Positions 13,301 to 49,600 of a stretch of 64,000 nt of DNA are shown in pieces (position 1 is the first letter of the stretch; every line of letters starts with the position of its first letter). The notes below the pieces were generated by a model. It had not been told where the DNA came from and ran no database searches. It worked only from the letters and a program-made list of their open reading frames with translations. The stretch is from NCBI GenBank assembly GCA_040954595.2, contig CM082586.2:11997337-12061336 (forward strand), given 5' to 3'. Both the position numbers and the translations under genes were made by a program. This stretch comes from Balanoglossus misakiensis. Lineage: Eukaryota; Animalia; Hemichordata.

Positions 13301-13399
13301 GCCATGTTTTACTAAAAAGACTTATGTATAGTTTCAAGGCTTTGTTTTGGAATAACGAATTCTCTCCAAGATTTAAGTTGAACAGTTACAGAATGAAAA
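1324..13399. repeat. Satellite DNA array, left arm; AT-rich monomers of 186 bp and ~206 bp
   Basis: Head-to-tail repeats of ...CATAAATGG(A/T)ATTCAAAGAA.GGTCAC.TAAC...GATTTAAGTGGAACAGTCACAGAATGAAAACAAATATGGAAAGAGTTATGC...; spacing 186 bp (1512->1698). Long monomers carry an extra 20-bp TTTACTAAAAAGACTTATGT. A 785-bp 4-mer repeat is visible at 6911, 7696 and 8481. Confidence 0.97.
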
Positions 13400-19164: not shown

Positions 19165-19794
19165 GTGAGTGTTGGTGCACAACAGTGCATAGTATCATAG
19201 ATTACCACACTCAGATGTGCATTGTGTCAAATGTGGATTAGCCTTTTAAATCATTTGCGGAGGAATTGCTTAGTTCTACTATCAGTCACACTGTGGTTTA
19301 ATATCAGATAGGATGATTGTCCACTTCCATGCACCGTCTGTTAACATGTAAAAGCACTAGCCCATTTCTTTGAATTTGTTATTCAGGGGTGACGGAAGAA
19401 AAACATATTGTTATAGTTCATAGAAATGGTGTTTATTGAATACATCAGAAAGGAAGGGACTTGTATGTGCAGAACAATCATTGTGCTATGTGGTGTTAAG
19501 ACCATTGGATAGTGCCATTACTTACAACAATGGCTTCAAAAAAAAAACATTGGTATGATGTATGTTTCTTGATATCCTTGTCCTGTCATTGAACTTGTAT
19601 ATTAAATTACTAAGTGTAAATCACGTATAAAACAATCATGTTATGATTTGTATGAGTACATAATGAAAATGCCAGGATGTAAGGTCATACAGGGGTCAGG
19701 ATTCAAGCCTTGTCAGGTTCTTCAGGAGGGAAATGTGGTGTCAGTGAATACTGTATGTGTATTTGTCCGTGTGTGTGTCTGTTGTCATTGTACA

Positions 19795-22090: not shown

Positions 22091-22444
22091 TCAGATCTGA
22101 GATTTGTCTGAGCACATTCTAATGTGAATGCCAGAATGTTAGGTCATACAGGGGTCAGGATTTAAGCCTTATCCTGTTTTCCAGCAGAAAAAAGTGTGTC
22201 TGTGATACTTTGTGTGTATATGTGTCTATTTGTATACAAGCATGGGGATATGTGTGTATTATGTGTTGCTGTTGAATTACAACTTTGTTCGGACTTAGTT
22301 TCTATAAATCACTTCTGTCTGTTAAAAGTTCCACTACTTTTTACTGGTTATAATCACTTGTGATGTGATTTGATGAGAAGGTTATCTGAAGTCTGGTGGT
22401 GAAAGGATAGTAAAAACCTAACTAGTATATTTGCTTTGTTCCAG

Positions 22445-25400
22445 ATGCCACGCAGTAGATACTGGAGGAAGAAGAGGAGTCAGAAGAATGAAGATGCTGT
22501 TGTGTCTGAGGATCCTGTCCTCTTGAAAAACAGGATAGCTATAGAGCACAAAGAGGGGCCTGCCCTCTCTAAAAACAGGAATAATAATGAATTCAAAGAG
22601 GGGCCTGCCCTCTCTAAAAACAGGAATAGAAATGAATTCAAAGAGGGGCCTGCCCTCTCTAAAAACAGGAATAGAAATGAATACAAAGAGGGGCCTGCCC
22701 TCTCTAAAAACAGGAATAGAAATGAATACAAAGAGGGGCCTGCCCTCTCTAAAAACAGGAATAGAAATGAATTCAAAGAGGGGCCTGCCCTCTCTAAAAA
22801 CAGGAATATGGATAAAATCAGAAAAAGTGACAGAGAAAATGAAAGTACAAAAGTCAACAATGAGATATTTGAGACTGAAAATCAAAGTGTTGATAAGACT
22901 GAAGGAAGTAATGAAATTCTGCAACAACATAGTCTTGACAATGATTCATCGGACGACCTATATATTGGTAGTGGAACAGAGGACAATGTTTATTCATTCT
23001 CTCCACTTACTTCTGATGTATGTGAACAGCTGTGTTGCAAATTTGATATTGTAGATAAAAATAAAATTGATATTTTAAATAAACTTGGAAGTGTTACAAT
23101 TGGAGACCCATGTAATTACAAGTCAATAATTGGTGATGGTAACTGTTTTTTTAGGTCCTTGTCATATTGTATAAGTGGGACTGAGCGAAATCACGGAGTT
23201 ATTCGAACGGCTATTGTGAATCACTTGAAAGCCAATGAGGAAGTATATTCAGGCTGGGTAAGGTTAGATGGATATACATCAGTTGCTGATTATATTGAGA
23301 AGTCCAGAATGGATCGTCTTGGAACATGGGCTACAGAAACTGAAATCCTTGCCACTACTAATCTCTTCAATGTGAATATTTTCGTGTACAGTTTCGATAG
23401 TTGGTGGAAACATTCTTGTAATATTATCAATAAAAATAATGTTGATAGAGGTGTTGGTATATACCTGAACCATCGCAATAGAAACCATTATGAAGTAGTT
23501 TCGTGTGTGAAGACACCACAGTTGGAAACTTGTCACTGTACACACATTGAGTGCGATGTAGATGTCCCTGTTGAGATTGTGACTGGAGAGTGCATGGATG
23601 TGACAGACAATGAGTGTTCAAAACAGATTGGTTTGAAAAAAGAGTTCCATTTGGATGAAGTATTTGCAACACATGAAGAACTTCCGTGTCTTGCACCAGT
23701 AAGAGCTGAGAAACGTGGAAGAGCCATGGGTGAACGGCTGAAAAAGAAACTCAGGCGTGAAAAGTATGAAAGTGAAAGAGGTATATTGAATAAATTGAAT
23801 GTACCCAGTAGTCTGAGCAGCTCTAAAGCAGCTAAACAATATGAACGCTATCAGACTAATTGTGAATATAGAGACAACATAAAATCGGTTAATAGAAAGA
23901 GATATCATGAAGATGTACTGTATAGAGAGAACAAAAAACGTAGACTTGTAGGAAGATACGATTGTGACCTAGTATTTCGTGAAGTACAAAAAACTGTATG
24001 TGCAGAACAATGTTTGGCAAAATATGAAAAAGTTCCACTATACAGAGAGCACAAGAAGAGTGAGAGTGCAGCACAATGTGTTGACAAGTACAAAAAAGAT
24101 CAGACATTCCGAAAACACAAAAAGAGTCAGAGTGCAGCACAATGTGTTGACAAGTACAAAAAAGATCAGGCATTCCGAGAACACAAGAAGAGTCAGAGTG
24201 CAGCAGAATTTGCTAACAAGTACCAAAAAGATCTTAATTTCCGAGAACTCAAAAACAGTCAGAATGCAGCACAATTTCTTGACAAGTATAACAAAGATGA
24301 GGAGTTCCAAAAACAGATTAAAAAAAATTGTCTTGAACGGTACCAACAGGATCAAGTTTATAAACAGACTGTACTGGAGAGAACACGTACTGAGATGAAA
24401 GTGAGAAAGATAAATAAGGAAAATATAGAGCGTGTTATAATTGATTTTAGGAATCAGACTTCAGTTGGGCCAAATTGTGTATGTTCAGTTTGTCACCGGC
24501 GACTTTTTCGAAAGCAGGTTCTTGTTTGTAAGATGGATAACTATGTCTCTAAGGGAGATCTCTGTGAAATGAATGCCAAGAAATGCATAACACAAGATTA
24601 TGTACATAACTGTACTGAATTATGTATTGCTGAATGTCCACTTAAGAGTAGTGCAGCCAGTAAATTATGGATTTGTCACACATGCCATAGCAAACTATTG
24701 CGTGCAGAGATGCCTGTTCAAGCTGCTGCAAATAATCTTGATGTAAAACCAATCCCTAATGAATTAAAATGTCTGAATTCTTTAGAGCAACATTTAATTG
24801 CACTGCACATTCCTTTCATGAAAATGATGGCTCTGCCAAGAGGTGGACAAAATGGTGTTCATGGACCTGTTGTGTGTGTTCCATCTAATATAGAAAAAGC
24901 CACAAGTATTTTGCCTAGAGGTGAATTGGATGACCAGATGATAAAAGTGAAATTAAAGCGGAAATTAAGTTATAAAGGTTGTTATCAGTATCAATTCGTA
25001 AACAAAGGACACATTCAAAATGCACTGGAATACCTACAGAAAAATAACTTGTGGTACAATGATGTGAAATTCAATCTCGCTTGGGAAAATACTCTTGAAA
25101 AGACTGAAGAAAAATCTGCTGGTGAAAGTAATGGAAACATTGAGGATAAGAATTTAGATACTGAAGGCAATGGTGTAGCATCAGACACAGAAGGTGGAAA
25201 CGAGCCTGAAAAAGATACTGATGGAATATTCATGGACACATGCTTTCAACCAGTTGACATTGGTCAGGATATTCTGGATTATCACTTTGACGATATCGCT
25301 TGTGTTGCTCCTGGTGAGGATAATAAACCTGTTAGAGTGTTGATGGAAAAGTTCAATGAGGCAAAGTGCTTTCCTGTGATATTCCCAACTGGGTCACCAA

Positions 25401-28400
25401 CATTTCACGATGATCGAGAGGTTAAGATAACAATAGGACGATACCTGCAAAGTCGTCTAATGAATGCAAGCAACAGGTTTGCCAGAAGCACAGACTATAT
25501 ATTTTATGCACAATATCGTTCAGAACTTGACCAGGTTGTATCAAATGTGTCAATCGCTTTGAGAAAAGGAACTGCCAATGCTTGTGGCAAAAAGGTGACA
25601 TCCGATGTTCTGACGGATGGGGATTCTTTGAGAGAGATATTGAAGTGTGATGAAGGCTACAAGTTCTTGAAACCTATTCGAGGGACACCCCCTTACTGGC
25701 AAGCTACACAGAAAGATTTGTTTGCAATGATCAGACAGTTAGGTATACCGACATGGTTCTGCTCATTTTCTGCCGCTGACTTAAGATGGAAAGAAGTAAT
25801 TGAAACTATCCTACGTGAAGAAGGTGATGTACGTAATGCTGAGGATCTCGATTGGTCTGAGAAATGTGGTATCTTGAGACGAAACCCTGTGACTGCGGCA
25901 AGAATGTTTGATCATAGATTTCATTGTTTTTTGACTGATGTAATTATGTCACCAGCTAGTCCTATTGGGAAGATCAAAGATTATTTTTATCGAGTTGAGT
26001 TTCAACAGCGTGGATCACCGCACACTCACTGTTTGTTTTGGGTTGAAAATGCCCCAAAAGTGGACAAAGATTCTGATGAGGATGTTGTTGATTTCGTTGA
26101 CACATATGTAACATGTGAAATGCCTTCTATTGAAGAGGATGAGGTACTGCATGAGATTGTGAAAACAGTCCAGAAACACAGCTCAAGGCATTCAAAATCT
26201 TGCAAGAAAAAGGGTACTACATGTCGATTCAACTTTCCTCGACCTCCTTCAAACAAAACTTTTGTATGCCACCCATCTGTCAGCATAGATACCGGTATAG
26301 AGGTAACAGATGACAATCAGTGTAAGGGTGATCAAATGACTACATCACTGGAAAATGAATTTGAAATAGATTTTCCTCAGTTGGATGATACAGCATTGGC
26401 TCAGAAGAAGGCTAGACAAATTTTAGAACGAGTTTGGACATGCCTGTGTGACAAAGAGAAACCCATTGATACTATTGATGATTTGTTCAATGCGGTTGGC
26501 ATATCTCAGGAGATGTTTGAACAAGCAAATGCAATTTTGGCCAAAAAGACCAGTGTAGTTCTAAAACGTGAGCCAAGTGATGTCTGGGTAAACCAATATA
26601 ATGCCAACCTTCTCCGTTGCTGGAATGCAAATATGGACATTCAGTTTGTTGTGGATGCTTATGCCTGTGTTGTGTACATTGTGTCATACATCTCTAAGGC
26701 AGAAAGAGAAATGGGTTTACTCTTGGAACATGCACAGAAAGAGGCTAACAAAGAAGGAAATATGGATGCAAAGTCGGCCATGAAAGAGTTAGGTGGTGTA
26801 TATCTGCACAACAGGGAAATAAGTGCCCAGGAAGCTGTGTATAGGGTATGTGGTTTGAAACTGAAACAATCATCACGTAAAGTTCAGTTTATTCCAACAG
26901 GAGAAAATCAAATCAAAATGAGTTTGCCATTAGCTGCAATACAGAAGAAAATGAAAGGTGATGATTTAGATGAGGAAGAGATATGGATGAATAGCATTGT
27001 AGACAGGTACAAGAACAGACCAAATGGGGAAGATTTCGACAATATGTGTCTTGCAACATTTTGTTCTGAATACAGAGTGGTTTCAAAATCAGAAATGAAA
27101 AACGTGAGTACTGACAAACGTCGCAGTCCAATAGTGAAGTTGAAAAATGATGTTGGTTACATGCAGAAAAGATCTAGATATGATGGGGCTGTTGTTAGAT
27201 ATGCACGATTTTCTGTTACCAAATATCCAGAGAAGCACTATTGCAGTATATTACAACTTTTTCTCCCATACCGAACTGAATCACAACTGAAACCTAGTGG
27301 ATTTGAGTCGTATGAGGATTTTTATTGTCTTGGTGCAGTGAAATGTGGCTCTGCTTCTTTAGAAAAGGTTAAAGTGATCGTAGATGCCAATAAAGCATTA
27401 TTTGAAACAGAGGCTGAGGCTATTGATGCAGCTGAACAAATTCTTGAAGAGAATGGTCCTCTTGAAGATGCATGGGCTCAATTGTGTCCAGAAAATGAAT
27501 TAGAACGATTGGAATGCATTGAAGAAGGCAAAAAGTGTTGTGATGATGATCCGGTGGATGATAGTGATATTCCAGATTTGGTACAAAAACCCAAAGGTGA
27601 TGATTGCCATGTAGAAATGTCATATTCAATGAAGAAATATGAGGTTGAAACAATGTGTAGATCATTGAACAAGAAACAAGCAGAAGTGTTTTACACTGTC
27701 AGGAAGTGGTGTTTGGACAAAAGCAATGGCAAGAATCCAGAACCCTTTTATCTGTTTGTCACTGGTGGTGCTGGTACTGGAAAAAGTCACTTAATCAAAG
27801 CCATATATCATGAAGCCAAACGAATACTAGCTCGGGCAATGCCAGATGTTGATGGAATTTCTATTGCTTTAACTGCACCGACAGGAGTAGCGGCATTTAA
27901 TATACAAGGAACAACTCTCCATCATATATTCTCCATAGCAGTTGACTCAAAGCTACCATATCAGCCACTGCGTGAAGAAAAGCTGAATACTCTTCGTTGC
28001 AAGTTTGGTAACCTTCAAATTTTGATAATAGATGAGATTTCTATGGTAGACAAAAAGTTATTGTACTACGTTCACGGAAGACTACGACAAATAAAACAGT
28101 CATCGGCTGAGTCACCATTTGGGAATGTGTGTGTTATTGCTGTGGGTGATTTTTATCAACTTCCTCCTGTGAAAGCAAGTCCACTGTGTATAGACCGTGA
28201 ATCCGTCAATCTGTGGAATGATAATTTCAGTATTGTAGAACTAACTGAAATAATGAGACAGAAAGACTGTGCATTTGCAGAGGCACTAAATCGAGTAAGA
28301 GTTCACAAAAAAGGGGACACAATGAATGCAGATGATGTGGCAATGTTTCAGAGGTGTGTTACCGGTGAAACATCTGAGGCAATGCATGTTTTTGCTACAA

Positions 28401-29746
28401 ATGCAGAGGTTAATAGCTGTAATGTTGAAATGCTTCAATCTCAATGTTCTGACCCTGTATGTATTGAAGCAGAGGATTTTAGCAGGAATCCTAAAACTGG
28501 AAGGCTAGAAAAAAAGGAAGGTCATCACGTAAAAGTGTATAGGACAACTTTGCCAAAGACTCTAACTCTAGCTGTTGGTGCACGAGTACAACTGGCGCAT
28601 AACATTGATGTGGCTGATGGTTTGGTGAATGGCGTATTTGGCACAGTATGTCACATTGCAGTGAAACCAAAGAAAAAATTTCCAGCTGCCATTTATGTTG
28701 TATTTGATAATGAGAAAGTTGGCCAAGGATTGCGTAAAAAGAAGCCTATAACTATATCTGACCTTCCAGTAAACAGCACCCCTATAGAACCTCAGGAAAT
28801 GTCTGTAGCAAGTAATGGTGGTATTAGGAGGCAGTTTCCTTTAAAACTAGCTTGGGCATGTACAGTTCACAAAGTACAGGGTTTAACCGTTGAAAAAGCA
28901 GTTGTCAGTTTAAAGAAGATGTTTGCACCAGGACAGGCATATGTGGCATTGAGTCGGGTGACATCATTAGATGGTCTCATTATTAATGACTTTAACAAAT
29001 CATCCATATATTGCAATGAAAAAGTACAAGAAGCGCTGGAAACAATGCCAAAGTTTCTTCCCAAGTGTACTCAGACAGAACAGAGTAAATATACATGCTC
29101 ATTTGTATTGCATAATGTTGAGGGCCTTGTACATCACATTAAAGATATTTGCAATGACAGTGAATACTTGGAAGCAGACTTCATTTGTTTGACGGAGACA
29201 TGGTTATCTGAAAAAGAAGCATGGTGTGATGTACAATTGAGCGGGTTTGAATTCAATCACCAACCTCGATCTCAATCCTACAATCAATTTGATACAAATA
29301 CCTCAAGTTTACAGTTGCAACAGCGGGGTGGTGTTGGAGTCTATAGCAAAATTTGCAAGAATTTTGAAATTTTGCATTTGGCTGTGACTAATTTGGAATG
29401 TATTTCATTTTATGTCACAAATATCAATGTTACAATAGCTATAGTTTACAGACCTCCATCATACAAAGCAGAGGTATTCAAAAATAGCATGGTTTCTTTG
29501 GTGAAAGCAATGGAAAAATACCCAGGAGGCAAACTGATCATGGGTGATTTCAATGAAGATATCTTGACTCGGTCATCACTTGTAAAGTTCATGGAAGATC
29601 ATGGCTTCAGACAATCTGTAAGCGAACCAACTACAGAAGCTAATACACTGATTGATCATGTGTATGTGAAAGGAATACAAAATGTGACAGTAAATGTTAT
29701 ACCAAAATACTTCAGCTTTCATGAAGCAATAAGCATCAAAATATAG
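22445..29746 (+). CDS. Helentron Rep/Helicase transposase polyprotein (2433 aa): OTU cysteine protease, Zn-finger, HUH Rep, Pif1-family SF1B helicase, C-terminal APE/EEP endonuclease
   Basis: Uninterrupted ORF; first ATG at 22445 (the ORF track starts at a TTG at 22436). OTU: GDGNCFFRS...WAT..E...NHYEVV. Zn-finger: CSVC...CHTC. Rep: PTWFCSFS, YFYRVEFQQRGSPHTHCLFW, YIVSYISK. Helicase: GGAGTGKS, APTGVAA, IIDEISMV, GDFYQLPPV, EIMRQ, QFPLKLAWACTVHKVQGLT, GQAYVALSRV. EEP: HNVEGL, LTETWL, GGVGVY, YRPP, GDFN, IDHVY, SFH. Confidence 0.96.
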   Translation: MPRSRYWRKKRSQKNEDAVVSEDPVLLKNRIAIEHKEGPALSKNRNNNEFKEGPALSKNRNRNEFKEGPALSKNRNRNEYKEGPALSKNRNRNEYKEGPALSKNRNRNEFKEGPALSKNRNMDKIRKSDRENESTKVNNEIFETENQSVDKTEGSNEILQQHSLDNDSSDDLYIGSGTEDNVYSFSPLTSDVCEQLCCKFDIVDKNKIDILNKLGSVTIGDPCNYKSIIGDGNCFFRSLSYCISGTERNHGVIRTAIVNHLKANEEVYSGWVRLDGYTSVADYIEKSRMDRLGTWATETEILATTNLFNVNIFVYSFDSWWKHSCNIINKNNVDRGVGIYLNHRNRNHYEVVSCVKTPQLETCHCTHIECDVDVPVEIVTGECMDVTDNECSKQIGLKKEFHLDEVFATHEELPCLAPVRAEKRGRAMGERLKKKLRREKYESERGILNKLNVPSSLSSSKAAKQYERYQTNCEYRDNIKSVNRKRYHEDVLYRENKKRRLVGRYDCDLVFREVQKTVCAEQCLAKYEKVPLYREHKKSESAAQCVDKYKKDQTFRKHKKSQSAAQCVDKYKKDQAFREHKKSQSAAEFANKYQKDLNFRELKNSQNAAQFLDKYNKDEEFQKQIKKNCLERYQQDQVYKQTVLERTRTEMKVRKINKENIERVIIDFRNQTSVGPNCVCSVCHRRLFRKQVLVCKMDNYVSKGDLCEMNAKKCITQDYVHNCTELCIAECPLKSSAASKLWICHTCHSKLLRAEMPVQAAANNLDVKPIPNELKCLNSLEQHLIALHIPFMKMMALPRGGQNGVHGPVVCVPSNIEKATSILPRGELDDQMIKVKLKRKLSYKGCYQYQFVNKGHIQNALEYLQKNNLWYNDVKFNLAWENTLEKTEEKSAGESNGNIEDKNLDTEGNGVASDTEGGNEPEKDTDGIFMDTCFQPVDIGQDILDYHFDDIACVAPGEDNKPVRVLMEKFNEAKCFPVIFPTGSPTFHDDREVKITIGRYLQSRLMNASNRFARSTDYIFYAQYRSELDQVVSNVSIALRKGTANACGKKVTSDVLTDGDSLREILKCDEGYKFLKPIRGTPPYWQATQKDLFAMIRQLGIPTWFCSFSAADLRWKEVIETILREEGDVRNAEDLDWSEKCGILRRNPVTAARMFDHRFHCFLTDVIMSPASPIGKIKDYFYRVEFQQRGSPHTHCLFWVENAPKVDKDSDEDVVDFVDTYVTCEMPSIEEDEVLHEIVKTVQKHSSRHSKSCKKKGTTCRFNFPRPPSNKTFVCHPSVSIDTGIEVTDDNQCKGDQMTTSLENEFEIDFPQLDDTALAQKKARQILERVWTCLCDKEKPIDTIDDLFNAVGISQEMFEQANAILAKKTSVVLKREPSDVWVNQYNANLLRCWNANMDIQFVVDAYACVVYIVSYISKAEREMGLLLEHAQKEANKEGNMDAKSAMKELGGVYLHNREISAQEAVYRVCGLKLKQSSRKVQFIPTGENQIKMSLPLAAIQKKMKGDDLDEEEIWMNSIVDRYKNRPNGEDFDNMCLATFCSEYRVVSKSEMKNVSTDKRRSPIVKLKNDVGYMQKRSRYDGAVVRYARFSVTKYPEKHYCSILQLFLPYRTESQLKPSGFESYEDFYCLGAVKCGSASLEKVKVIVDANKALFETEAEAIDAAEQILEENGPLEDAWAQLCPENELERLECIEEGKKCCDDDPVDDSDIPDLVQKPKGDDCHVEMSYSMKKYEVETMCRSLNKKQAEVFYTVRKWCLDKSNGKNPEPFYLFVTGGAGTGKSHLIKAIYHEAKRILARAMPDVDGISIALTAPTGVAAFNIQGTTLHHIFSIAVDSKLPYQPLREEKLNTLRCKFGNLQILIIDEISMVDKKLLYYVHGRLRQIKQSSAESPFGNVCVIAVGDFYQLPPVKASPLCIDRESVNLWNDNFSIVELTEIMRQKDCAFAEALNRVRVHKKGDTMNADDVAMFQRCVTGETSEAMHVFATNAEVNSCNVEMLQSQCSDPVCIEAEDFSRNPKTGRLEKKEGHHVKVYRTTLPKTLTLAVGARVQLAHNIDVADGLVNGVFGTVCHIAVKPKKKFPAAIYVVFDNEKVGQGLRKKKPITISDLPVNSTPIEPQEMSVASNGGIRRQFPLKLAWACTVHKVQGLTVEKAVVSLKKMFAPGQAYVALSRVTSLDGLIINDFNKSSIYCNEKVQEALETMPKFLPKCTQTEQSKYTCSFVLHNVEGLVHHIKDICNDSEYLEADFICLTETWLSEKEAWCDVQLSGFEFNHQPRSQSYNQFDTNTSSLQLQQRGGVGVYSKICKNFEILHLAVTNLECISFYVTNINVTIAIVYRPPSYKAEVFKNSMVSLVKAMEKYPGGKLIMGDFNEDILTRSSLVKFMEDHGFRQSVSEPTTEANTLIDHVYVKGIQNVTVNVIPKYFSFHEAISIKI
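22508..22807 (+). repeat. In-frame 45-bp coding minisatellite (15-aa EGPALSKNRNRNE(F/Y)K), about 6.7 units
   Basis: GAGGGGCCTGCCCTCTCTAAAAACAGG at 22553, 22598, 22643, 22688, 22733 and 22778, plus a degenerate first unit at 22508. Confidence 0.93.
23100..23505 (+). other. OTU-like cysteine protease domain within the transposase
   Basis: D-G-N-C catalytic loop (~23132-23146) and distal N-H-Y (~23483-23491). Confidence 0.85.
23950..24345 (+). repeat. In-frame 66-bp (22-aa) basic helical repeats (YKKDQxFRxHKKSQSAAQCVDK-like)
   Basis: CAG(A/G)CATTCCGA at 24101 and 24167; about 6 progressively diverged units in translation. Confidence 0.8.
25350..26900 (+). other. HUH/Y2 Rep domain
   Basis: HTH (HUH motif) at 26021-26029 and YxxxYxxK at 26675-26698. 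Ser in motif 1 and F-x-R before motif 2, as recalled for Helentron-type Reps. Confidence 0.92.
27660..29050 (+). other. Pif1-family helicase domain
   Basis: Walker A GGAGTGKS at 27764-27787 and the downstream SF1B motifs in the expected order. Confidence 0.95.
29090..29746 (+). other. APE-like (EEP) endonuclease domain
   Basis: N..G, ETW, YRPP, GDFN, IDH and terminal S-F-H motifs in the order found in L1/CR1-type endonucleases. Confidence 0.88.
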
Positions 29747-34400: not shown

Positions 34401-35139
34401 CACTTACCCATTCCGGACACCTGGTACCACCACTTAGCAGTGGTTCAAGATGATCCTGTAGAAATTCTCATTTTTCTCTTATTTATTATTTGGACCTGTT
34501 AATTAGCTTACTTTGAATGATATTGATTATTCGACCTGATTTGATGTCTTATTCTTGCAATAACAAACACAAACCTCTACTGTTGTCAACCTTTTATTTA
34601 TTTAAGACAATCCTTTCAGGTGAATCATTGCTTGTTTGAAAGCAGCCTTTATTGTAGCTATCTCTTCATTTTAATGTACATTATAGGTCTCTGACCACTT
34701 AAAACATAACTTCTAAGTCTGATTTTCTTATCTATCTTTACTCTGTACAATATATCTGGTTTGGCTGATATATCACCCAATGGCCATACAAACTTTTGTC
34801 ATTTAATTTTGTCACATACTAGTACATATCCAAAACACAAAACATCTATGGCCCTCTTATTATTAGGCATACAATTTGCTTAAGTATAACAACCCGTAAA
34901 GTGTTTCAACATACCAAATACAAATACTTTATCTGCTCTGAAAGTCGAGATATGGAAAAATAATACAAGGTCACCCCAGGGACAAGGCTGAATCTACTAT
35001 GGATGCTGATATATACGAAAGTAAATCAAAGGTCACCTATGGCCACACGGATATTCGGACAAAATAGTTTGACCCCATACTATGTCCATGTCCGTGTTGG
35101 TAAACCTGTAATTATGTATGCACATAATTAATGCGTAAA

Positions 35140-37460
35140 GCAGGTGTCATAGGTGACCCAAAACTTTGGCTTTTCATTATAGCCCCATACCTCCAAACGC
35201 CAAGATTGTACCTGCTGTGGATGTCGAGATATGCGAAAGTAGGTCAAAGGTCACCAGAGGTCACCCAACATTTGGGCAAAAAATTTTGATCCCATACTGG
35301 TCCATGTCCAACAAAAACCAAATCTCTAGCTCTATTGGTTCGCCTGTAATTAGCTATGCATATAATTAATGAGGTCAGCAGAGGTCAAAGGGGTCATGAA
35401 AAGTAGCAAAATATTTCAATCACACACTCATCCACATGCATCAAAAACCAAACGTCTAGCCCTATAGGTCAGCCAGAAATTAGATATGCAGAAATAATAA
35501 CACGTAAAAAATAGTAGGTCAAAGGTCATGCGAAAAAGTCGCCAAAAATTTGTAACATATTTTAGTCACATGAAGATTGATATCCATCAAAAGAATTTGT
35601 ATGCTATCATTTTTTAGACTAGGATAAGGAATTCAAATTTTTCACTGCTTTTTACAAAATCCAATATGGCCGCCATAATCTTCGACCAATCACAATGCTC
35701 TTTGAAAACTTGATAGACATCAGTGCAGTGACCATACTCCCCGAACCTTGCGACTCAGTTATCGCCCATTCTGGAGAAGAAGATTTTTGGAGTTTTACTA
35801 TGGTTTTTCGAAAATCCAATATGGCCGCCATAATCTTCGACCAATCACAATGATCTTCGCAAACTTGATAGACATCAGATAGGTGACCACATACCCCAAA
35901 CCCCGTGTCTCTGTTATCACCGGTTCTGGAGAAGAAGATTTTTGAAATTTAAGCCGGATTTCAGAAAAAAAATTGTAGCAAAAAAACTGCAACATTGACA
36001 GCAAAATATCCACCTACAAAAATGATGGGTAGAAGGTATACTACCTGCACACCGAATTTGAAGTCGATCTGACTTGTAGTTTCTGAGATCTGAGATTTGC
36101 ATTTTTTCAGAAAATCCAATATGGTCGCCAGGTCACGTGACTAATTAAAAATTCACAGGTTCAATGCACATCTACTAATTGACCTTGACCACTGTAGCAA
36201 GTTTGAGAAGTGTACCTGCAGCAGTGTCTGAGATCTAGAGGTCACCCAGAGGTCACCCACAAAACCAAAAACCTTTTGGTTAGCCCGGAATTAGGTATGC
36301 ACATAAATAATGAGTTAAGCAGGTGTCACCCGTGACCCAAAATTTTGGCTTTTCATTATGGCCCCATACCTCCAAATGCCAAGGCTGTATCTGCTGTGGA
36401 TTTCGAGATATGCAAAAGTAGGTCAAAGGTCACCCGAGGTCACCCAACATTTGGGCAAAATATTTTTACCCCATACTGGTCCATGTATAACAAAAACAAA
36501 ACCTCTAGGTCTATTGGTTAATCTGTAATTAGGTATGTGCATATTTAATGAGGTCAGCAGAGGTCAAAGGGGTCATGAAAAGTAGCAAAAAATTTTTATC
36601 ACATACAAATCCACATACATCAAAAACCAAACTTATAGCCCTATTGGTTAGCCTGGAATTAGATATGCAGAAAAATGATGCATCAAAAGTAGGTCAAAGG
36701 TCATTGCCAAAATTACCAAAATATTTATAGCTTATTCTTGTCCTATGATGATTCATATCCATTAAAAGAATTTCTGTACTATCAATTTTTAGGCTAGAAA
36801 GGGAATTTTTTCTTTTTAATCGTTTTTCACAAAATCCAATATGGCCGCCATAATCTTCGACCAATCACATTCCCCTTCGCAAACTTGTTAGACATCTGTT
36901 TAATGACCACACACACCAAATCTTGTGACTCAGTTATCGCCGGTTCTTGAGAAGAAGATTTTTGAAATTTTACTAGGGTTTTTCGAAAATCCAATATGGC
37001 CGCCATAATCTTCGACCAATCACAATGATCTTCGCAAACTTGATAGACCTCAGTTAGGTGACCCCATACCCAAAACCGCGTGACTCGGTTATTGCCGGTT
37101 CTGGAGAAGAAGATTTTTGAAATTTTGACCAGATTTCAGAAAAAAAATTGTAGCAAAAAAACTGCAACTTTGTCAGCATAATTTCCAATTACAAAAATGA
37201 TTGACAGAAAGTAGTCTACCTGCACGCCAAATTTGAAGTCGATCTGACTTGTAGTTTCTGAGATCTGAGATTTGCATTTTTTCAGAAAATCCAATATGGC
37301 CGCCAGGTCACGTGACTAATTAAAAATTCATGGGTTCAATGCACGACTACTCATTGACCTTGACCACTGTAGCAAGTTTGAAAACTGTACCTGCAGTGGT
37401 GTCTGAGATCTAGAGCGACAAAGAATTGACATAAGAATAAAGAAAGAAAGAAAGACTGAA
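35140..37460. repeat. Right subterminal block of element C: two tandem copies of a ~1.15-kb modular unit
   Basis: Copy 1 (~35140-36240) ends GAGATCTAGAG; copy 2 (~36300-37395) ends GAGATCTAGAGCG and is followed by (GAAA)n. Both are direct repeats of the left block and of element B. Confidence 0.85.
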
Positions 37461-37478
37461 AAATACCAACGAAACCAA

Positions 37479-37620
37479 TAGGGCCCAAGCCTGGCTTGGC
37501 TTGGGCCCTAAAAACCCCAACGAAACCAATAGGGCCCAAGCGCTGGTATGCGCTTGGGCCCTAAATATTCCAACAATAACAATGGGGGCACAAGCCGCCT
37601 GAGGGCGCTTGTGCCCCCAA
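37479..37620. repeat. Three stacked terminal hairpins (right ends of C, B and A)
   Basis: 13-bp stem/6-nt loop at 37479-37510; 14-bp stem/6-nt loop at 37530-37563; 13-bp stem/11-nt loop at 37583-37619. Each is preceded by a homologous 18-nt A/C-rich spacer. Confidence 0.93.
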
Positions 37621-40600
37621 CAAATATGGAAAGAGTTATGCTGGAATGTTGTAAGGGATAGATTAATATTGCAAATAATTTAATTTCTTACATCATAAAA
37701 TGAATTCAAAGAATGGTCACATAACAGGATATGTTTTACTAAAAAGACTTATGTATAGTTTCAAGGCTTTGTTTGGAATAACGAATTCTCTCCAAGATTT
37801 AAGTTGAACAGTTACAGAATGAAAACAAATATTCAAATAGTTATGCTGGAATGTTGTAAGGGATAGTTTAATATTGCAAATAATTTAATTTCTTACATCA
37901 TAAATGAAATTCAAAGAATGGTCAAATAACGGGCCATGTTTTACTAAAAAGACTTAATATGTATAGTTGAAGGCTTTGTTTTGGAATAACGAATTCTCTA
38001 CAAGATTTAAGTGGAACAGTCACAGAATGAAAACAAATATGGAAAGAGTTATGTCGGAATGTTGTAAGGGATAGATTAATATTGCAAATAATTTAATTTC
38101 TTACAGCATAAATGGAATTCAAAGAATGGTCACATAACGGGCCATGTTTTACTAAAAAGACTTATGTATAGTTTCAAGGATTTGTTTTGGAATAACGAAT
38201 TCTCTCCAAGATTTAAGTTGAACAGTTACAGAATGAAAACAAATATGGAAAGAGTTATGCTGGAATGTTGTAAGGGATAGATTAATATTGCAAATAATTT
38301 AATTTCTTACATCATAAATGGAATTCAAAGAATGGTCACATAACGGGCCATGTTTTACTAAAAAGACTTATGTATAGTTTCAAGGCTTTGTTTTGGAATA
38401 ACGAATTCTCTCCAAGATTTAAGTTGAACAGTTACAGAATGAAAACAAATATTCAAATAGTTATGCTGGAATGTTGTAAGGGATAGTTTAATATTGCAAA
38501 TAATTTAATTTCTTACATCATAAATGAAATTCAAAGAATGGTCAAATAACGGGCCATGTTTTACTAAAAAGACTTAATATGTATAGTTTGAAGGCTTTGT
38601 TTTGGAATAACGAATTCTCTACAAGATTTAAGTGGAACAGTCACAGAATGAAAACAAATATGGAAAGAGTTATGCCGGAATGTTGTAAGGAATAGATTAA
38701 AATTGCAAATAATTTAATTTCTTACATCATAAATGGAATTCAAAGAAACGTCACGTAACAGGATATGTATAGGTTCAAGAATTTGTGTTGAAATACCAAA
38801 TTCTCTACAAGATTTAAGTGGAACAGTTACAGAATGAAAACAAATATTCAAATAGTTATGCTGGAATGTTGTAAGGGATAGTTTAATATTGCAAATAATT
38901 TAATTTCTTACATCATAAATGAAATTCAAAGAATGGTCAAATAACGGGCCATGTTTTACTAAAAAGACTTAATATGTATAGTTGAAGGCTTTGTTTTGGA
39001 ATAACGAATTCTCTACAAGATTTAAGTGGAACAGTCACAGAATGAAAACAAATATGGAAAGCGTTATGCCGGAATGTTGTAAGGGATAGATAATTATTGC
39101 AAATAATTTAATTTCTTACATCATAAATGGAATTCAAAGAATGGTCACATAACGGGCCATGTTTTACAAAAAGACTTATGTATAGTTTCAAGGCTTTGTT
39201 TTGGAATAACGAATTCTCTACAAGATTTAAGTGGAACAGTCACAGAATGAAAACAAATATGGAAAGAGTTATGCCGGAATGTTGTAAGGAATAGATTAAA
39301 ATTGCAAATAATTTAATTTCTTACATCATAAATGGAATTCAAAGAATGGTCACATAACGGGCCATGTTTTACAAAAAGACTTATGTATAGTTTCAAGGCT
39401 TTGTTTTGGAATAACGAATTCTCTACAAGATTTAAGTGGAACAGTCACAGAATGAAAACAAATATGGAAAGAGTTATGCTGAAATGTTGTAAGGGATAGA
39501 TTAATATTGCAAATAATTTAATTTCTTACATCATAAATGGAATTCAAAGAATGGTCACATAACGGGCCATGTTTTACTAAAAAGACTTATGTATAGTTTC
39601 AAGGCTTTGTTTGGAATAACGAATTCTCTCCAAGATTTAAGTTGAACAGTTACAGAATGAAAACAAATATTCAAATAGTTATGCTGGAATGTTGTAAGGG
39701 ATAGATTAATATTGCAAATAATTTAATTTCTTACATCATAAATGGAATTCAAAGAAACGTCACGTAACAGGATATGTATAGTTTCAAGGCTTTATTTTGG
39801 AATAACGAATTCTCTACAAGATTTAAGTGGAACAGTCACAAAATGAAAACAAATATTCAAATAGTTATGCTGGAATGTTGTAAATGATAGTTTAATATTG
39901 CAAATAATTTAATTTCTTACATCATAAATGAAATTCAAAGAATGGTCACATAACGGGCCATGTTTTACCAAAAAGACTTATGTATAGTTTCAAGGTTTTG
40001 TTTTGGAATAACGAATTCTCTACAAGATTTAAGTGGAATAGTCACAGAATGAAAACAAATATGGAAAGAGTTATGCTGGAATGTTGTAAGGGATAGATTA
40101 ATATTGCAAATAATTTAATTTCTTACATTATAAAATGAATTCAAAGAATGGTCACATAACAGGATATATTTTACTAAAAAGACTTATGTTATAGTTTCAA
40201 GGCTTTGTTTTGGAATAACGAATTCTCTACAAGATTTAAGTGGAACAGTCACAGAATGAAAACAAATATGGAAAGAGTTATGCCGGAATGTTGTAAGGAA
40301 TAGATTAATATTGCAAATAATTTAACTTCTTACATCATAAATGGAATTCAAAGAAAGGTCACGTAACAGGATATGTATAGTTTCAAGCCTTTGTTTTGGA
40401 GTAACGAATTCTCTACAAGATTTAAGTGGAACAGTCACAGAATGAAAACAAATATGGAAAGAGTTATGCTGAAATGTTGTAAGGGATAGATTAATATTGC
40501 ATAAAATTTTTATTTCTTACATCATAAACGGAATTCAAAGAATGGTCACATAACTGGATATGTTTTACTAAAAAGACTTATGTATAGGTTCAAGAATTTG

Positions 40601-43600
40601 TGTTGAAATACCAAATTCTCTACAAGATTTAAGTGGAACAGTCACAGAATGAAAACAAATATGGAAAGAGATATGTCAGAATGTTGTAAGGGATAGATTA
40701 ATATTGCAAATAATTTAATTTCTTACATCATAAATGGAAATCAAAGAATGGTCACATAACGGGCCATGTTTTACCAAAAAGACTTATGTATAGTTTCAAG
40801 GTTTTGTTTTGGAATAACGAATTCTCTACAAGATTTAAGTGGAATAGTCACAGAATGAAAACAAATATGGAAATAGTTATGCTGAAATGTTGTAAGGGAT
40901 AGTTTAATATTGCAAATAATTTAATTTCTTACATCATAAATGAAATTCAAAGAATGGTCAAATAACAAGCCATGTTTTACTAAAAAGACTTATGTTATAG
41001 TTTCAAGGCTTTGTTTTGGAATAACGAATTCTCTACAAGATTTAAGTGGAACAGTCACAGAATGAAAACAAATATGGAAAGAGTTATGCCGGAATGTTGT
41101 AAGGAATAGATTAAAGTTGCAAATAATTTAATTTCTTACATCATAAATGGAATTCGAAGAAAGGTCACGTAACAGGATATGTATAGGTTCAAGAATTTGT
41201 GTTGAAATACCAAATTCTCTACAAGATTTAAGTGGAACAGTCACAGAATGAAAACAAATATGGAAAGAGTTATGTCGGAATGTTGTAAGGGATAGATTAA
41301 TATTGCAAATAATTTAATTTCTTACATCATAAATGGAATTCAAAGAATGGTCACATAACGGGCCATGTTTTACTAAAAAGACTTATGTATAGTTTCAAGG
41401 CTTTGTTTGGAATAACGAATTCTCTCCAAGATTTAAGTTGAAGAGTTACAGAATGAAAACAAATATTCAAATAGTTATGCTGGAATGTTGTAAGGGATAG
41501 ATTAATATTGCAAATAATTTAATTTCTTACATCATAAATGGAATTCAAAGAATGGTCACATAACGGGCCATGTTTTACTAAAAAGACTTGTGTATAGTTT
41601 CAAGGCTTTGTTTGGAATAACGAATTCTCTCCAAGATTTAAGTTGAACAGTTACAGAATGAAAACATATATTCAAATAGTTATGCTGGTATGTTGTAAGG
41701 GATAGTTTAATATTGCAAATAATTTAATTTCTTACATCATAAATGAAATTCAAAGAATGTTCACATAACGGGCCATGTTTTACTAAAAAGACTTAATATG
41801 TATAGTTTGAAGGCTTTGTTTTGGAATAACGAATTCTCTACAAGATTTAAGTGGAACAGTCACAGAATGAAAACAAATATGGAAAGCGTTATGCTGGAAT
41901 GTTGTAAGGGATAGATTAATATTGCAAATAATTTAATTTCTTACATCATAAAATGAATTCAAAGAATGGTCACATAACAGGATATGTTTTACTAAAAAGA
42001 CTTATGTTATAGTTTCAAGGCTTTGTTTTGGAATAACGAATTCTCTACAAGATTTAAGTGGAACAGTCACAGAATGAAAACAAATATGGAAAGAGTTATG
42101 CCGGAATGTTGTAAGGAATAGATTAAAGTTGCAAATAATTTAATTTCTTACATCATAAATGGAATTCGAAGAAAGGTCACGTAACAGGATATGTATAGGT
42201 TAAAGAATTTGTGTTGAAATACCAAATTCTCTACAAGATTTAAGTGGAACAGTCACAGAATGAAAACAAATATGGAAAGAGTTATGTCGGAATGTTGTAA
42301 GGGATAGATTAATATTGCAAATAATTTAATTTCTTACATCATAAATGGAATTCAAAGAATGGTCACATAACGGGCCATGTTTTACTAAAAAGACTTATGT
42401 ATAGTTTCAAGGCTTTGTTTGGAATAACGAATTCTCTCCAAGATTTAAGTTGAACAGTTAAAGAATGAAAACAAATATTCAAATAGTTATGCTGGAATGT
42501 TGTAAGGGATAGATTAATATTGCAAATAATTTAATTTCTTACATCATAAATGGAATTCAAAGAATGGTCACATAACGGGCCATGTTTTACTAAAAAGACT
42601 TGTGTATAGTTTCAAGGCTTTGTTTGGAATAACGAATTCTCTCCAAGATTTAAGTTGAACAGTTACAGAATGAAAACATATATTCAAATAGTTATGCTGG
42701 AATGTTGTAAGGGATAGTTTAATATTGCAAATAATTTAATTTCTTACATCATAAATGAAATTCAAAGAATGTTCACATAACGGGCCATGTTTTACTAAAA
42801 AGACTTATGTATAGTTTCAAGGTTTTGTTTTGGAATAACGAATTCTCTACAAGATTTAAGTGGAATAGTCACAGAATGAAAACAAATATGGAAAGAGTTA
42901 TGCTGGAATGTTGTAAGGGATAGATTAATATTGCAAATAATTTAATTTCTTACATCATAAAATGAATTCAAAGAATGTTCACATAACAGGATATATTTTA
43001 CTAAAAAGACTTATGTTATAGTTTCAAGGCTTTGTTTTGGAATAACGAATTCTCTACAAGATTTAAGTGGAACAGTCACAGAATGAAAACAAATATGGAA
43101 AGAGTTATGCCGGAATGTTGTAAGGAATAGATTAATATTGCAAATAATTTAATTTCTTACATCATAAATGGAATTCAAAGAAAGGTCACGTAACAGGATA
43201 TGTATAGTTTCAAGCCATTGTTTTGGAGTAACGAATTCTCTACAAGATTTAAGTGGAACAGTCACAGAATGAAAACAAATATGGAAAGAGTTATGCTGAA
43301 ATGTTGTAAGGGATAGATTAATATTGCATAAAATTTTTATTTCTTACATCATAAATGGAATTGAAAGAATGGTCACATAACTGGATATGTTTTACTAAAA
43401 AGACTTATGTATAGGTTCAAGAATTTGTGTTGAAATACCAAATTCTCTACAAGATTTAAGTGGAACAGTCACAGAATGAAAACAAATATGGAAAGAGTTA
43501 TGCCGGAATGTTGTAAGGAATAGATTAAAATTGCAAATAATTTAATTTCTTACATCATAAATGGAATTCAAAGAAACGTCACGTAACAGGATATGTATAG

Positions 43601-46600
43601 GTTCAAGAATTTGTGTTGAAATACCAAATTCTCTACAAGATTTATGTGGAACAGTCAGAGAATGAAAACAAATATGGAAAGAGTTATGTCGGAATGTTGT
43701 AAGGGATAGATTAATATTGCAAATAATTTAATTTCTTACATCATAAATGGAATTCAAAGAATGGTCACATAACGGGCCATGTTTTACTAAAAAGACTTAT
43801 GTATAGTTTCAAGGCTTTGTTTGGAATAACGAATTCTCTCCAAGATTTAAGTTGAACAGTTACAGAATGAAAACAAATATTCAAATAGTTATGCTGGAAT
43901 GTTGTAAGGGATAGTTTAATATTGCAAATAATTTAATTTCTTACATCATAAATGGAATTCGAAGAATGTTCACATAACGGGCCATGTTTTACTAATAAGA
44001 CTTATGTATAGTTTCAAGGTTTTGTTTTGGAATAACGAATTCTCTACAAGATTTAAGTGGAATAGTCACAGAATGAAAACAAATATGGAAAGAGTTATGC
44101 TGGAATGTTGTAAGGGATAGATCAATATTGCAAATCATTTAATTTCTTACATCATAAAATGAATTCAAAGAATGGTCACATAACAGGATATATTTTACTA
44201 AAAAGACTTATGTTATAGTTTCAAGGCTTTGTTTTGGAATAACGAATTCTCTACAAGATTTAACTGGAACAGTCACAGAATGAAAACAAATATGGAAAGA
44301 GTTATGCCGGAATGTTGTAAGGAATAGATTAATATTGCAAATAATTTAATTTCTTACATCATAAATGGAATTCAAAGAAAGGTCACGTAGGATATGTATA
44401 GTTTCAAGCCATTGTTTTGGAGTAACGAATTCTCTACAAGATTTAAGTGGAACAGTCACAGAATGAAAACAAATATGAAAAGAGTTATGCTGAAATGTTG
44501 TAAGGGATAGATTAATATTGCATAAAATTTTTATTTCTTACATGATAAATGGAATTCAAAGAATGGTCACATAACTGGATATGTTTTACTAAAAAGACTT
44601 ATGTATAGGTTCAAGAATTTGTGTTGAAATACCAAATTCTCTACAAGATTTAAGTGGAACAGTCACAGAATGAAAACAAATATGGAAAGAGATATGTCAG
44701 AATGTTGTAAGGGATAGATTAATATTGCAAATAATTTAATTTCTTACATCATAAATGGAATTCAAAGAATGGTCACATAACGGGCCATGTTTTACTAAAA
44801 AGACTTATGTATAGTTTCAAGGCTTTGTTTTGGAATAATGAATTCTCTCCAAGATTTAAGTTGAACAGTTACAGAATGAAAACAAATATTCAAATAGTTA
44901 TGCTGAAATGTTGTAAGGGATAGTTTAATATTGCAAATAATTTAATTTCTTACATCATAAATGAAATTCAAAGAATGGTCAAATAAGGGGCCATGTTTTA
45001 CTAAAAAGACTTAATATGTATAGTTTGAAGGCTTTGTTTTGGAATAACGAATTCTCTACAAGATTTAAGTGGAACAGTCACAGTTTGAAAACAAATATGG
45101 AAAGCGTTATGCTGGAATGTTGTAAGGGATAGATTAATATTGCAAATAATTTAATTTCTTACATCATAAAATGAATTCAAAGAATGGTCACATAACAGGA
45201 TATGTTTTACTAAAAAGACTTATGTTATAGTTTCAAGGCTTTGTTTTGGAATAACGAATTCTCTACAAGATTTAAGTGGAACAGTCACAGAATGAAAACA
45301 AATATGGAAAGAGTTATGCCGGAATGTTGTAAGGAATAGATTAATATTGCAAATAATTTAATTTCTTACATCATAAATGAAATTCAAAGAATGGTCAAAT
45401 AACGGGCCATGTTTTACTAAAAAGACTTATGTATAGTTTCAAGGCTTTGTTTGGAATAACGAATTCTCTCCAAGATTTAAGTTGAACAGTTACAGAATGA
45501 AAACAAATATTCATATAGTTATGCTGGAATGTTGTAAGGGATAGATTAATATTGCAAATAATTTAATTTCTTACATCATAAAATGAATTCAAAGAATGGT
45601 CACATAACAGGATATGTTTTACTAAAAAAACTTATGTATAGTTACAAGGCTTTGTTTTGGAATAACGAATTCTCTACAAGATTTAAGTGGAACAGTCACA
45701 GAATGAAAACAAATATGGAAAGAGTTATGCTGGAATGTTATAAGGGATAGATTAATATTGCAAATAATTTAATTTCTTACATCATAAAATGAATTCAAAG
45801 AATGGTCACATAACAGGATATGTTTTACTAAAAAGACTTATGTTATAGTTTCAAGGCTTTGTTTTGGAATAACGAATTCTCTACAAGATTTTAGTGGAAC
45901 AGTCACAGAATGAAAATAAATATGGAAAGCGTTATGCTGGAATGTTGTAAGGGATAGATTAATATTGCAAATAATTTAATTTCTTACATCATAAAATGAA
46001 TTCAAAGAATGGTCACATAACAGGATATGTTTTACTAAAAAGACTTATGTTATAGTTTCAAGGCTTTGTTTTGGAATAACGAATTCTCTACAAGATTTAA
46101 GTGGAACCGTCACAGAATGAAAACAAATATGGAAAGAGTTATGCCGGAATGTTGTAAGGAATAGATTAATATTGCAAATAATTTAATTTCTGACATCATA
46201 AATGGAATTCAAAGAATGGTCACGTAACAGGATATGTATAAGTTCAAGAATTTGTGTTGAAATACCAAATTCTCTACAAGATTTAAGTGGAACAGTCACA
46301 GAATGAAAACAAATATGGAAAGAGTTATGCTGAAATGTTGTAAGGGATAGATTAATATTGCAAATAATTTAATTTCTTACATCATAAATGGAATTCAAAG
46401 AATGGTCACATAACGGGCCATGTTTTACTAAAAAGACTTATGTATAGTTTCAAGGTTTTGTTTTGTAATAACGAATTCTCTACAAGATTTAAGTGGAATA
46501 GTCACAGAATGAAAACAAATATGGAAAGAGTTATGCTGGAATGTTGTAAGGGATACATTAATATTGCAAATAATTTAATTTCTTACATCATAAATTGAAT

Positions 46601-49600
46601 TCAAAGAATGGTCACATAACAGGATATGTTTTACTAAAAAGACTTATGTTATAGTTTCAAGGCTTTGTTTTGGAATAACGAATTCTCTACAAGATTTAAG
46701 TGGAACAGTCACAGAATGAAAACAAATATGGAAAGAGTTATGCTAGAATGTTGTAAGAGAAAGTTTAATATTGCAAATAATTTAATTTCTTACATCATAA
46801 ATGAAATTCAAAGAATGGTCACATAACGGGCCATGTTTTACTAAAAAGACTAATGTATAGTTTCAAGGTTTTGTTTTGGAATAACGAATTCTCTACAAGA
46901 TTTAAGTGGAATAGTCACAGAATGAAAACAAATATGGAAAGAGTTATGCTGGAATGTTGTAAGGGATAGATTAATATTGCAAATAATTTAATTTCTTACA
47001 TCATAAAATGAATTCAAAGAATGGTCACATAACAGGATATGTTTTACTAAAAAGACTTATGTTATAGTTTCAAGGCTTTGTTTTGGAATAACGAATTCTC
47101 TACAAGATTTAAGTGGAACAGTCACAGAATGAAAACAAATATGGAAAGAGTTATGCCGGAATGTTGTAAGGAATAGATTAATATTGCAAATAATTTAATT
47201 TCTTACATCATAAATGGAATTCAAAGAAAGGTCACGTAACAGGATATGTATAGTTTCAAGCCTTTGTTTTGGAGTAACGAATTCTCTACAAGATTTAAGT
47301 GGAACAGTCACAGAATGAAAACAAATATGGAAAGAGTTATGCTGAAATGTTGTAAGGGATAGATTAATATTGCATAAAATTTAATTTCTTACATCACAAA
47401 TGGAATTCAAAGAATGGTCACATAACTGGATATGTTTTACTAAAAAGACTTATGTATAAGTTCAAGAATTTGTGTTGAAATACCAAATTCTCTACAAGAT
47501 TTAAGTGGAACAGTCACAGAATGAAAACAAATATGGAAAGAGATATGTCGGATTGTTGTAAGGGATAGATTAATATTGCAAATAATTTAATTTCTTACAT
47601 CATAAATGGAATTCAAAGAATGGTCACATAACGGGCCATGTTTCACTAAAAAGACTTATGTATAGTTTCAAGGCTTTGTTTTGGAATAACGAATTCTCTC
47701 CAAGATTTAAGTTGAACAGTTACAGAATGAAAACAAATATTCAAGTAGTTATGCTGAAATGTTGTAAGGGATAGTTTAATATTGCAAATAATTTAATTTC
47801 TTACATCATAAATGAAATTCAAAGAATGGTCAAATAACGGGCCATGTTTTACTAAAAAGACTTATGTTATAGTTTCAAGGCTTTGTTTTGGAATAACGAA
47901 TTCTCTACAAGATTTAAGTGGAACAGTCACAGAATGAAAACAAATATGGAAAGAGTTATGCCGGAATGTTGTAAGGAATAGATTAATATTGCAAATAATT
48001 TAATTTCTTACATCATAAATGGAATTCAAAGAATGCTCACATAACGGGCCATGTTTTACTAAAAAGACTTATGTATAGTTTCAAGGCTTTGTTTGGAATA
48101 ACGAATTCTCTCCAAGATTTAAGTGGAACAGTCACAGAATGAAAACAAGTATGGAAAGAGTTATGCTGAAATGTTGTAAGGGATAGATTAATATTGCAAA
48201 TAATTTAATTTCTTACATCATAAATGGAATTCAAAGAATGCTCACATAACGGGCCATGTTTTACTAAAAAGACTTATGTATAGTTTCAAGGCTTTGTTTG
48301 GAATAACGAATTCTCTCCAAGATTTAAGTTGAACATTTACAGAATGAAAACAAATATTCAAATAGTTATGCTGGAATGTTGTAAGGGATAGTTTAATATT
48401 GCAAATAATTTAATTTCTTACATCATAAATGAAATTCAAAGAATGGTCAAATAACGGGCCATGTTTTACTAAAAAGAGTTAATATGTATAGTTTGAAGGC
48501 TTTGTTTTGGAATAACGAATTCTCTACAAGATTTAAGTGGAACAGGCACAGAATGAAAAAAATATGGAAAGCTTTATGCCGGAATGTTGTAAGGGATAGA
48601 TAATTATTGAAAATAATTTAATATCTTACATCATAAATGGAAACCAAAGAAGGGTCACATAACGGGCCATGTTTTACAAAAAGACTTATGTATAGTTTCA
48701 AGGCTTTGTTTTGGAATAACGAATTCTCTACAAGATTTAAGTGGAATAGTCACAGAATGAAAACAAATATGGAAAGAGTTATGCTGGAATGTTGTAAGGG
48801 ATGGATTAATATTGCAAATAATTTAATTTCTTACATCATAAATGGAATTCAAAGAAAGGTCACGTAACAGGATATGTATAGTTACAAGCCTTTGTTTTGG
48901 AGTAACGAATTCTCTACAAGATTTAAGTGGAACAGTCACAGAATGAAAACAAATATGGAAAGAGTTATGCTGAAATGTTGTAAGGGATAGATTAATATTG
49001 CATAAAATTTAATTTCTTACATCATAAATGGAATTCAAAGAATGGTCACGTAACTGGATATGTTTTACTAAAAAGACTTACGTATAAGTTCAAGAATTTG
49101 TGTTGAAATACCAAATTCTCTACAAGATTTAAGTGGAACAGTCATAGAATGAAAACAAATATGGAAAGAGATATGTCGGATTGTTGTAAGGGATAGATTA
49201 ATATTGCAAATAATTTAATTTCTTACATCATAAATGAAATTCAAAGAATGGTCACATAACGGGCCATGTTTTACTAAAAAGACTTATGTATAGTTTCAAG
49301 GCTTTGTTTTGGAATAACGAATTCTCTCCAAGATTTAAGTTGAACAGTTACAGAATGAAAACAAATATTCAAATAGTTATGCTGAAATGTTGTAAGGGAT
49401 AGTTTAATATTGCAAATAATTTAATTTCTTACATCATAAATGAAATTCAAAGAATGGTCAAATAACGGGCCATGTTTTACTAAAAAGACTTAATATGTAT
49501 AATTTCAAGCCTTTGTTTTGGAGTAACGAATTCTCTACAAGATTTAAGTGGAACAGTCACAGAATGAAAACAAATATGGAAAGAGTTATGCTGGAATGTT

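Follow-up and report, generated by a model that had tools for sequence, protein, structure and literature searches.

The stack of three hairpins at one edge of a satellite array in the window (the 64,000-nt stretch of DNA analysed here) consists of the 5' ends of minus-strand Helentron/HINE (HLE2) rolling-circle elements, which we call A, B and C. The stack very probably arose by repeated self-insertion, each incoming element entering just behind the 5' hairpin (head) of a resident one, so that C lies in B, B in A, and A in the satellite. Self-insertion of HLE2 elements giving several 5' ends is an already published process, and composite moves are likewise known; the noteworthy part is the narrow zone in which the incoming elements land.

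Hairpin heads, tails and the RepHel gene

The first-pass annotation had described an array of three hairpins with differing loops, and the array is real: its positions, its loop letters and its folding all agree. From the inside outwards the hairpins are heads C, B and A, with the plus-strand loops listed in Table 1; their starts follow one another at steps of 51 and 53 bp, with gaps of 19 nt between neighbours. Folded as DNA, the region 37441-37625 reaches -56.9 kcal/mol (z -11.47), a value equalled by none of 200 dinucleotide shuffles, and heads A, B and C folded singly give z-scores of -5.2 to -6.6. Stems of at least 9 bp occur three times in the array and in 0 of 300 mononucleotide shuffles, and a search of 13000-38000 for strong hairpins returned the three heads and one ATGC repeat, nothing else. 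An Rfam search over the array gave no family at gathering score; a structured RNA gene was considered and rejected, the two bacterial sRNA matches lying below gathering (25.8 versus 40 bits and 21.8 versus 48.8 bits).

Read on the minus strand, each element has the order 5' hairpin, spacer, T-rich tract, body, 3' subterminal motif, short palindrome and TTTAATT. As in a HINE 5' end, an inverted arm stands beside the 5' subterminal repeat, here in stems of 13-14 bp. Subterminal inverted repeats are found at both ends (GGGCCCAAGC in B and C, GGGGCACAAGC in A) and are inverted in the heads; at each of the three left ends in the nest, the 3' motif and the short palindrome precede a copy of the hairpin arm. 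A 12-nt palindrome leads from the 3' repeat to the 3' end, as expected of HINE, and is the same in all three ends and in two records from other sources (L007 and L008, below); the 3' palindromes fold no better than shuffles (z +0.6 to +1.2). The target is TT, all three junctions lying after TT with two extra Ts each relative to the empty sites, where a terminal TT and a 2-bp target duplication look the same; there is no longer duplication. Like DINE-1-type elements, these have internal repeats, of 238 and 155 bp, and a GAAA/TAA microsatellite that follows the 5' end. For further comparison we used short contigs from three runs of one sample, X1, X2 and X3, which is possibly the window's own source. 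The elements are interspersed at high copy, with 9501 X1 contigs and 5077 X2 contigs on 34500-37660 and unlike flanks after the heads. Assignment to HLE1, the canonical Helitrons (5' TC, 3' hairpin and CTRR, AT target), was rejected, as both the ends and the target differ. A literature search with the terminal motifs returned unrelated titles only.

The nest also holds a RepHel ORF of 2433 aa, open from the ATG at 22445, with OTU, DUF6570, Helitron_like_N, PIF1 and Exo_endo_phos domains (Pfam) and with the Rep motif EFQQRGSPHTH, Walker A, DEISM and GDFN. Script patterns for three tyrosines and for Y..KY..K had no match in RepHel, and the catalytic tyrosines are not pinned down. This is the make-up of an autonomous Helentron, RepHel with an endonuclease and DUF6570, the last being an HLE2 marker (PMC11417382). 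The ORF is reversed relative to the A, B and C ends, as RepHel is relative to the termini in the published descriptions of Helentron-Da-40 and of the HLE2-reverse FoHeli elements FoHeli4/5 (PMC4067079, PMC5148889, PMC11417382). No separate pair of ends around the ORF was found by hairpin search of 13000-38000, near-match search or folding: the six 12-mer near-matches that 29880-29980 has elsewhere in the nest include none beside a TT-led head, and 29860-29985 and 17540-17680 fold no better than shuffles. C may be natively reversed, or it may be a shell enclosing a second Helentron whose own ends have eroded.

Several minor features accompany this gene. The ORF contains two in-frame tandem repeats, one near the N-terminus (22514-22808, 45-bp units, about 6 copies) and one at 24045-24298 (66-bp units, about 4 copies). 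Judged by eye, the RepHel promoter and non-coding 5' exons are likely to lie in 17556-22445, where splice-like sites stand near 17960, 19140-19165 and 22444 and the 205-bp array would be intronic. About 230 nt past the RepHel stop, the segment 29880-29976 ends in CTAGTT, and no partner end was found for it; we take it to resemble the 3' end of another Helitron-type element.

Table 1. Features of the nest and its flanks, in window coordinates
Feature	Position	Strand	Description
Satellite left arm	1324..13397	.	186/206-bp units
3' end of A	13398..13433	-	motif, short palindrome, terminal TTTAATT; in an A4 run of the satellite
Body of A	13434..14610	-	about 80% like the B/C bodies; own tract at end
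3' end of B	14611..14646	-	within A's tract
Body of B	14647..16287	-	238-bp and 155-bp internal repeats; own tract at end
3' end of C	16288..16323	-	within B's tract
Left part of C	16324..17555	-	HINE body, mosaic; breaks off at 17555
205-bp tandem array	19645..22172	.	upstream of the RepHel ORF, likely intronic
RepHel ORF	22436..29746	+	direction opposite to the A/B/C ends
Body2	34790..36240	-	HINE body, left part decayed (edge approximate); without 3' end, tract or head
Body3	36241..37419	-	B-like HINE body without 3' end; fused to body2 at 36240; bears head C
Tract and spacer behind head C	37420..37478	-	microsatellite-like GAAA/TAA; unoccupied homologous site at 37459-37463; more T-run ends at offsets 30, 34, 38 and 42
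Head C	37479..37510	-	5' subterminal repeat and inverted arm, 13-bp stem; loop TGGCTT on plus strand; minus-strand 5' base 37509; joined to body3
B spacer	37511..37529	-	B's sequence, from head B to the T-run entered by C
Head B	37530..37563	-	14-bp stem; loop TGGTAT on plus strand; 5' base 37562
A spacer	37564..37582	-	A's sequence, from head A to the T-run entered by B
Head A	37583..37619	-	variant subterminal motif GGGGCACAAGC; loop CGCCTGAGGGC on plus strand; 5' base 37618; adjoins the satellite
Satellite right arm	37620..64000	.	206-bp units; resumes the monomer broken at 13399

Probable nesting by self-insertion and its alternatives

The three heads are matched by exactly three 3' ends: within 13391-37630 the 3' end motif, allowing up to 4 mismatches in 17 letters, has copies only at 13400, 14613 and 16290. 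The first-pass annotation had held that hairpin multiplicity elsewhere without an equal number of left termini would refute nesting. This condition is too strict, because nesting followed by a composite move gives several heads on one tail, as described for Fusarium (PMC5148889). The variant GGGGCACAAGC is common to the outermost left end and the outermost head, both assigned to A. The 3' subterminal motifs of B and C are identical, so heads B and C are not assignable to tails by motif. When the flanks of A are rejoined, they restore a satellite monomer, 162 of the 168 scored monomer junctions reading AAACAA; those of B and of C, once joined, reproduce the arrangement of the undisturbed tract and spacer of C; and every junction pair, which on the minus strand comes right after TT, exceeds its empty site by two As.

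Empty sites are present in the contigs as well. The B spacer is preceded by a GAAA tract in at least 11 contigs of X1 and at least 4 of X2 (18 loose ends listed), while A's tract stands before the A spacer in at least 4, 2 and 1 of the listed contigs of X1, X2 and X3, respectively. Since both empty sites are seen as continuous sequence, nesting is favoured over local duplication. Run X3 (0.07 share) added only 3 contigs on the stack; no contig of X1-X3 spans the whole stack, and none passes 37627, the junction between A and the satellite being known from the window alone. C's own site, GACTGAA^AAATACC at 37460/37461, had been annotated as unoccupied, and it is indeed uninterrupted and homologous to the site used in B. 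One X2 contig (depth 11.3) has a hairpin end joined to 37460 with one A more than expected, which weakly suggests that a C-type free site is used elsewhere. Head-to-tail joints are seen at 37511 (at least 2 contigs) and at 37564 (a consensus of 7, agreement 0.66), and fit circles or tandem copies equally well.

The stack had been interpreted as an ordered insertion record, each loop serving as a barcode for its element. The nesting holds, given three heads with three tails, the A motif at both outer ends and the empty sites, and bracket logic places A, B and C in order; the record is, however, neither clean nor complete. Against three end pairs there are five bodies; C, a mosaic of 21 kb, includes two of these in addition to its left part, and between the two lie no end motifs. 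Body3, which bears head C, is 95-98.5% identical to B and 80-93.5% to C's left part, where one block is closer to body2 (90.6%). Since body3 is closer to B, the pairing of head C with C's tail is a presumptive one. As for the loops, contig depth over the B hairpin in X1 sums to 0.6-1.1 million versus tens to hundreds in the longest single contigs, summed contig depth not being copy number, and several loop variants occur. Because of this high summed depth and these variants, the loops are likely to mark subfamilies rather than single copies, and the barcode reading finds no support in its original form.

Heads B and C might instead have been made by local tandem duplication of one end, through slippage, unequal exchange or a re-initiation in which the first ~52 nt are copied, the left ends being a separate matter. 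TRF does report 37459-37565 as a 51-bp tandem (2.1 copies, 89% matches), B and C share the subterminal motif, and FoHeli copies are described as repeating their first 31-85 nt (PMC5148889). However, the loops differ among the heads, and the motif and spacer of head A differ from the others and match the outermost left end. Moreover, the B spacer continues B's tract exactly in a contig, reading GACAG and then an A-run, where C's tract has GACTG, and the 3' ends sit within the tracts at a matching register. Empty A and B sites together with 3' ends inside tracts contradict a duplication, which we regard as improbable. An assembly artefact at the edge of the satellite array is more improbable still: the locus does lie between long satellite arms with its stack unspanned by any contig, but the three separate pairs of junctions, as much as 24 kb from each other, close up exactly and each carry two additional As, short contigs run through head-spacer-head stretches at 0-4 letter differences, and similar structures occur in other records.

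A different question is where the insertions took place. The nest could have been built elsewhere and have arrived or been reshuffled as a block, as a B+C or A+B+C composite or by recombination among HINEs, in which case the local order is not the order of events. We consider this possible, if on the whole unlikely. It would fit the depth of stack-type junctions of a head into the A spacer (943/250 and 837), that of the extra-A junction (about 20,000, summed over 5 and 7 contigs), the mosaic left part of C, and a contig of depth 779 that is 97.5% alike to the interior 34502-35031. On the other hand, depth is not copy number, the 97.5% contig may be the other allele, and no composite with a foreign flank was seen among the contigs. 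Arrival as a block would alter the history of the locus and not the origin of the stack by self-insertion.

HUH rolling-circle transposases nick the 5' end, stay bound to it through a tyrosine and join it to a 3'-OH. In the stack, this 3'-OH would arise at a T-run behind the resident head, 22-23 nt from its hairpin, and there the putative RepHel would attach the 5' end of each new element. Each insertion would cut off the resident head as a stub of 51-56 nt, so that heads would accumulate at one flank and bodies without heads at the opposite one; all elements would share an orientation because only one strand of the tract is T-rich. The same process, combined with deletions, is likely to have produced C itself at an earlier stage, with its two bodies that lack ends and its reversed RepHel gene, and C then probably came in as a single unit of 21 kb. 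In the simplest history, body3 would have entered body2's tract in an earlier nest at another place, a deletion at 36240 would then have removed the inner tail, and the whole unit would have moved from its innermost head to the next tail. Such a route would be akin to the composite route drawn for FoHeli (PMC5148889).

The landing zone behind the resident head

Behind the resident inner arm, B is entered at an offset of 22 nt and A at 23 nt, and C's free T-run ends at 22. Among the listed contigs, other stacks lie at about 30, 31 and 34 nt by hand count, and one more lies farther into the tract. Insertion is directed not to one slot but to a short zone of several T-runs, about 22-34 nt behind the hairpin; the single next site predicted at 37460/37461 gives way to this zone, since the contigs supply at least 4 other offsets deeper in the GAAA/TAA tract. 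AA runs number about 86-115 per element, and its final 60 nt contain 12-13 (orders of magnitude). Because AA runs are so many, two nearly equal registers would be hard to obtain from a bare preference for TT, a point that comes from n=2. The TT sites 4-14 nt behind the inner arm show no use among the contigs listed, in which short offsets could be missed.

The spacing resembles that of a true 3' end, which lies 26 nt behind the subterminal motif in 6 of the 6 tails examined. On the minus strand, the inner arm of the head and the 3' subterminal repeat share one motif and point the same way, and the self-insertion offsets of 22, 23, 28 and about 30-34 nt bracket the 26-nt tail distance. We tentatively propose that the head acts as a false 3' end: RepHel would take its distance from the motif, nick the closest T-run and attach the incoming 5' end at that point. 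Under this proposal, the reaction would be the one that also produces the head-to-tail joints. A plainer possibility is a preference of the endonuclease for the first long T-run next to the bound enzyme. If the false-3'-end proposal is true, HLE2 elements contain a landing pad of their own that is guided by a motif, their choice of target follows a rule open to testing, and it is accounted for that the multiple ends reported for HLE2 elements are 5' ends.

Known systems and related records

The anatomy of HINE and DINE-1 elements has been described (Thomas et al. 2014, PMC4067079; Yang and Barbash 2008, PMC2374699), also for the oyster Cg_HINE (PMC7492417). As far as these descriptions go, the present elements are similar in having a 5' repeat with an inverted arm, a microsatellite behind it, internal repeats, a 3' subterminal repeat with a palindrome, a TT target and ambiguity in the count of terminal Ts. 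They are set apart by a 10-11 bp motif that forms part of a full 13-14 bp hairpin, and, unlike in those accounts, the heads here are stacked, very probably by insertion into the elements' own tract.

Stacked 5' ends are on record in Fusarium oxysporum, where repeated 5' ends of 31-85 nt in FoHeli1 were ascribed to self-insertion (Chellapan et al. 2016, PMC5148889) and FoHeli copies with up to five 5' termini have been reported (PMC13342296). For FoHeli, movement of a composite from the outer 5' end to the first 3' end, reversal of the ORF after nesting and joined ends have also been proposed or reported (PMC5148889, PMC13342296). FoHeli1 differs in being a fungal Helitron2 with other terminal sequences and, in the copies described, with several heads mostly on one tail, whereas the nest here keeps three tails in place. 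Among animal HLE2 elements, HelenXT233 of Xenopus tropicalis has two non-identical, directly repeated left termini, each marking a non-autonomous subfamily (HELIANO, PMC11417382); we liken it to the stacked heads by its description and not by terminal sequence. Maize Helitrons acquire multiple termini by nested insertion and then composite transposition, and are unlike the present elements in being HLE1, with stacked 3' ends, CTAG and an AT target (PMC3288121). The nest described here is a well-preserved animal example and an intermediate with all its tails, as the Fusarium model assumes, and should be useful for annotation.

A metagenome search returned 7 loci, of which L001, L004 and L005 (GC 0.58-0.72) were set aside because their hairpins are likely to have arisen by chance in bacterial DNA, leaving 4. 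One of the 4 family-like heads is doubled (L006), with a 58-bp step, different loops and an offset of 28. In L007, a 2.5-kb contig, a 3' end runs into a tract, and there is also a tail-to-head joint with element body on its 5' side. At 1085-1160 and 2370-2500 of L007 the 19-nt 3' terminus is identical to that of the window and the bodies are unalignable; the tail motif is therefore conserved across distant hosts. Viral contigs gave 0 matches to the 3' end and no RepHel relative. Genome contigs gave 1 match to the 3' end, a lone tail (L008), at a locus with no head and no RepHel match. It places the same Helentron 3' end (L008:5001-5040) on a contig of a bacterial MAG with about 40% GC, near a 374-bp direct repeat (99.7%); L008 is likely animal DNA binned into the MAG.

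The window itself is animal-type DNA. Its satellite (1324-13399 and 37620-64000) is built of 186-, 205/206- and 117-bp units in higher-order patterns. The idea that this satellite derives from the elements' internal repeat was ruled out, as the 205-bp units of the array upstream of RepHel and the 206-bp satellite units gave no match by blastn. Within the nest, 34360-34553 is the end of another high-copy repeat, with a depth of 73,000 (X1, 34500-34605) and loose ends at 34553 in all three runs. At the outer edge, the satellite array begins at the border of a 1.15-kb element (170-1324) with 36-bp terminal inverted repeats (94% complementary) and TAA on both sides, which we take to be, most likely, a PIF/Harbinger-type MITE.
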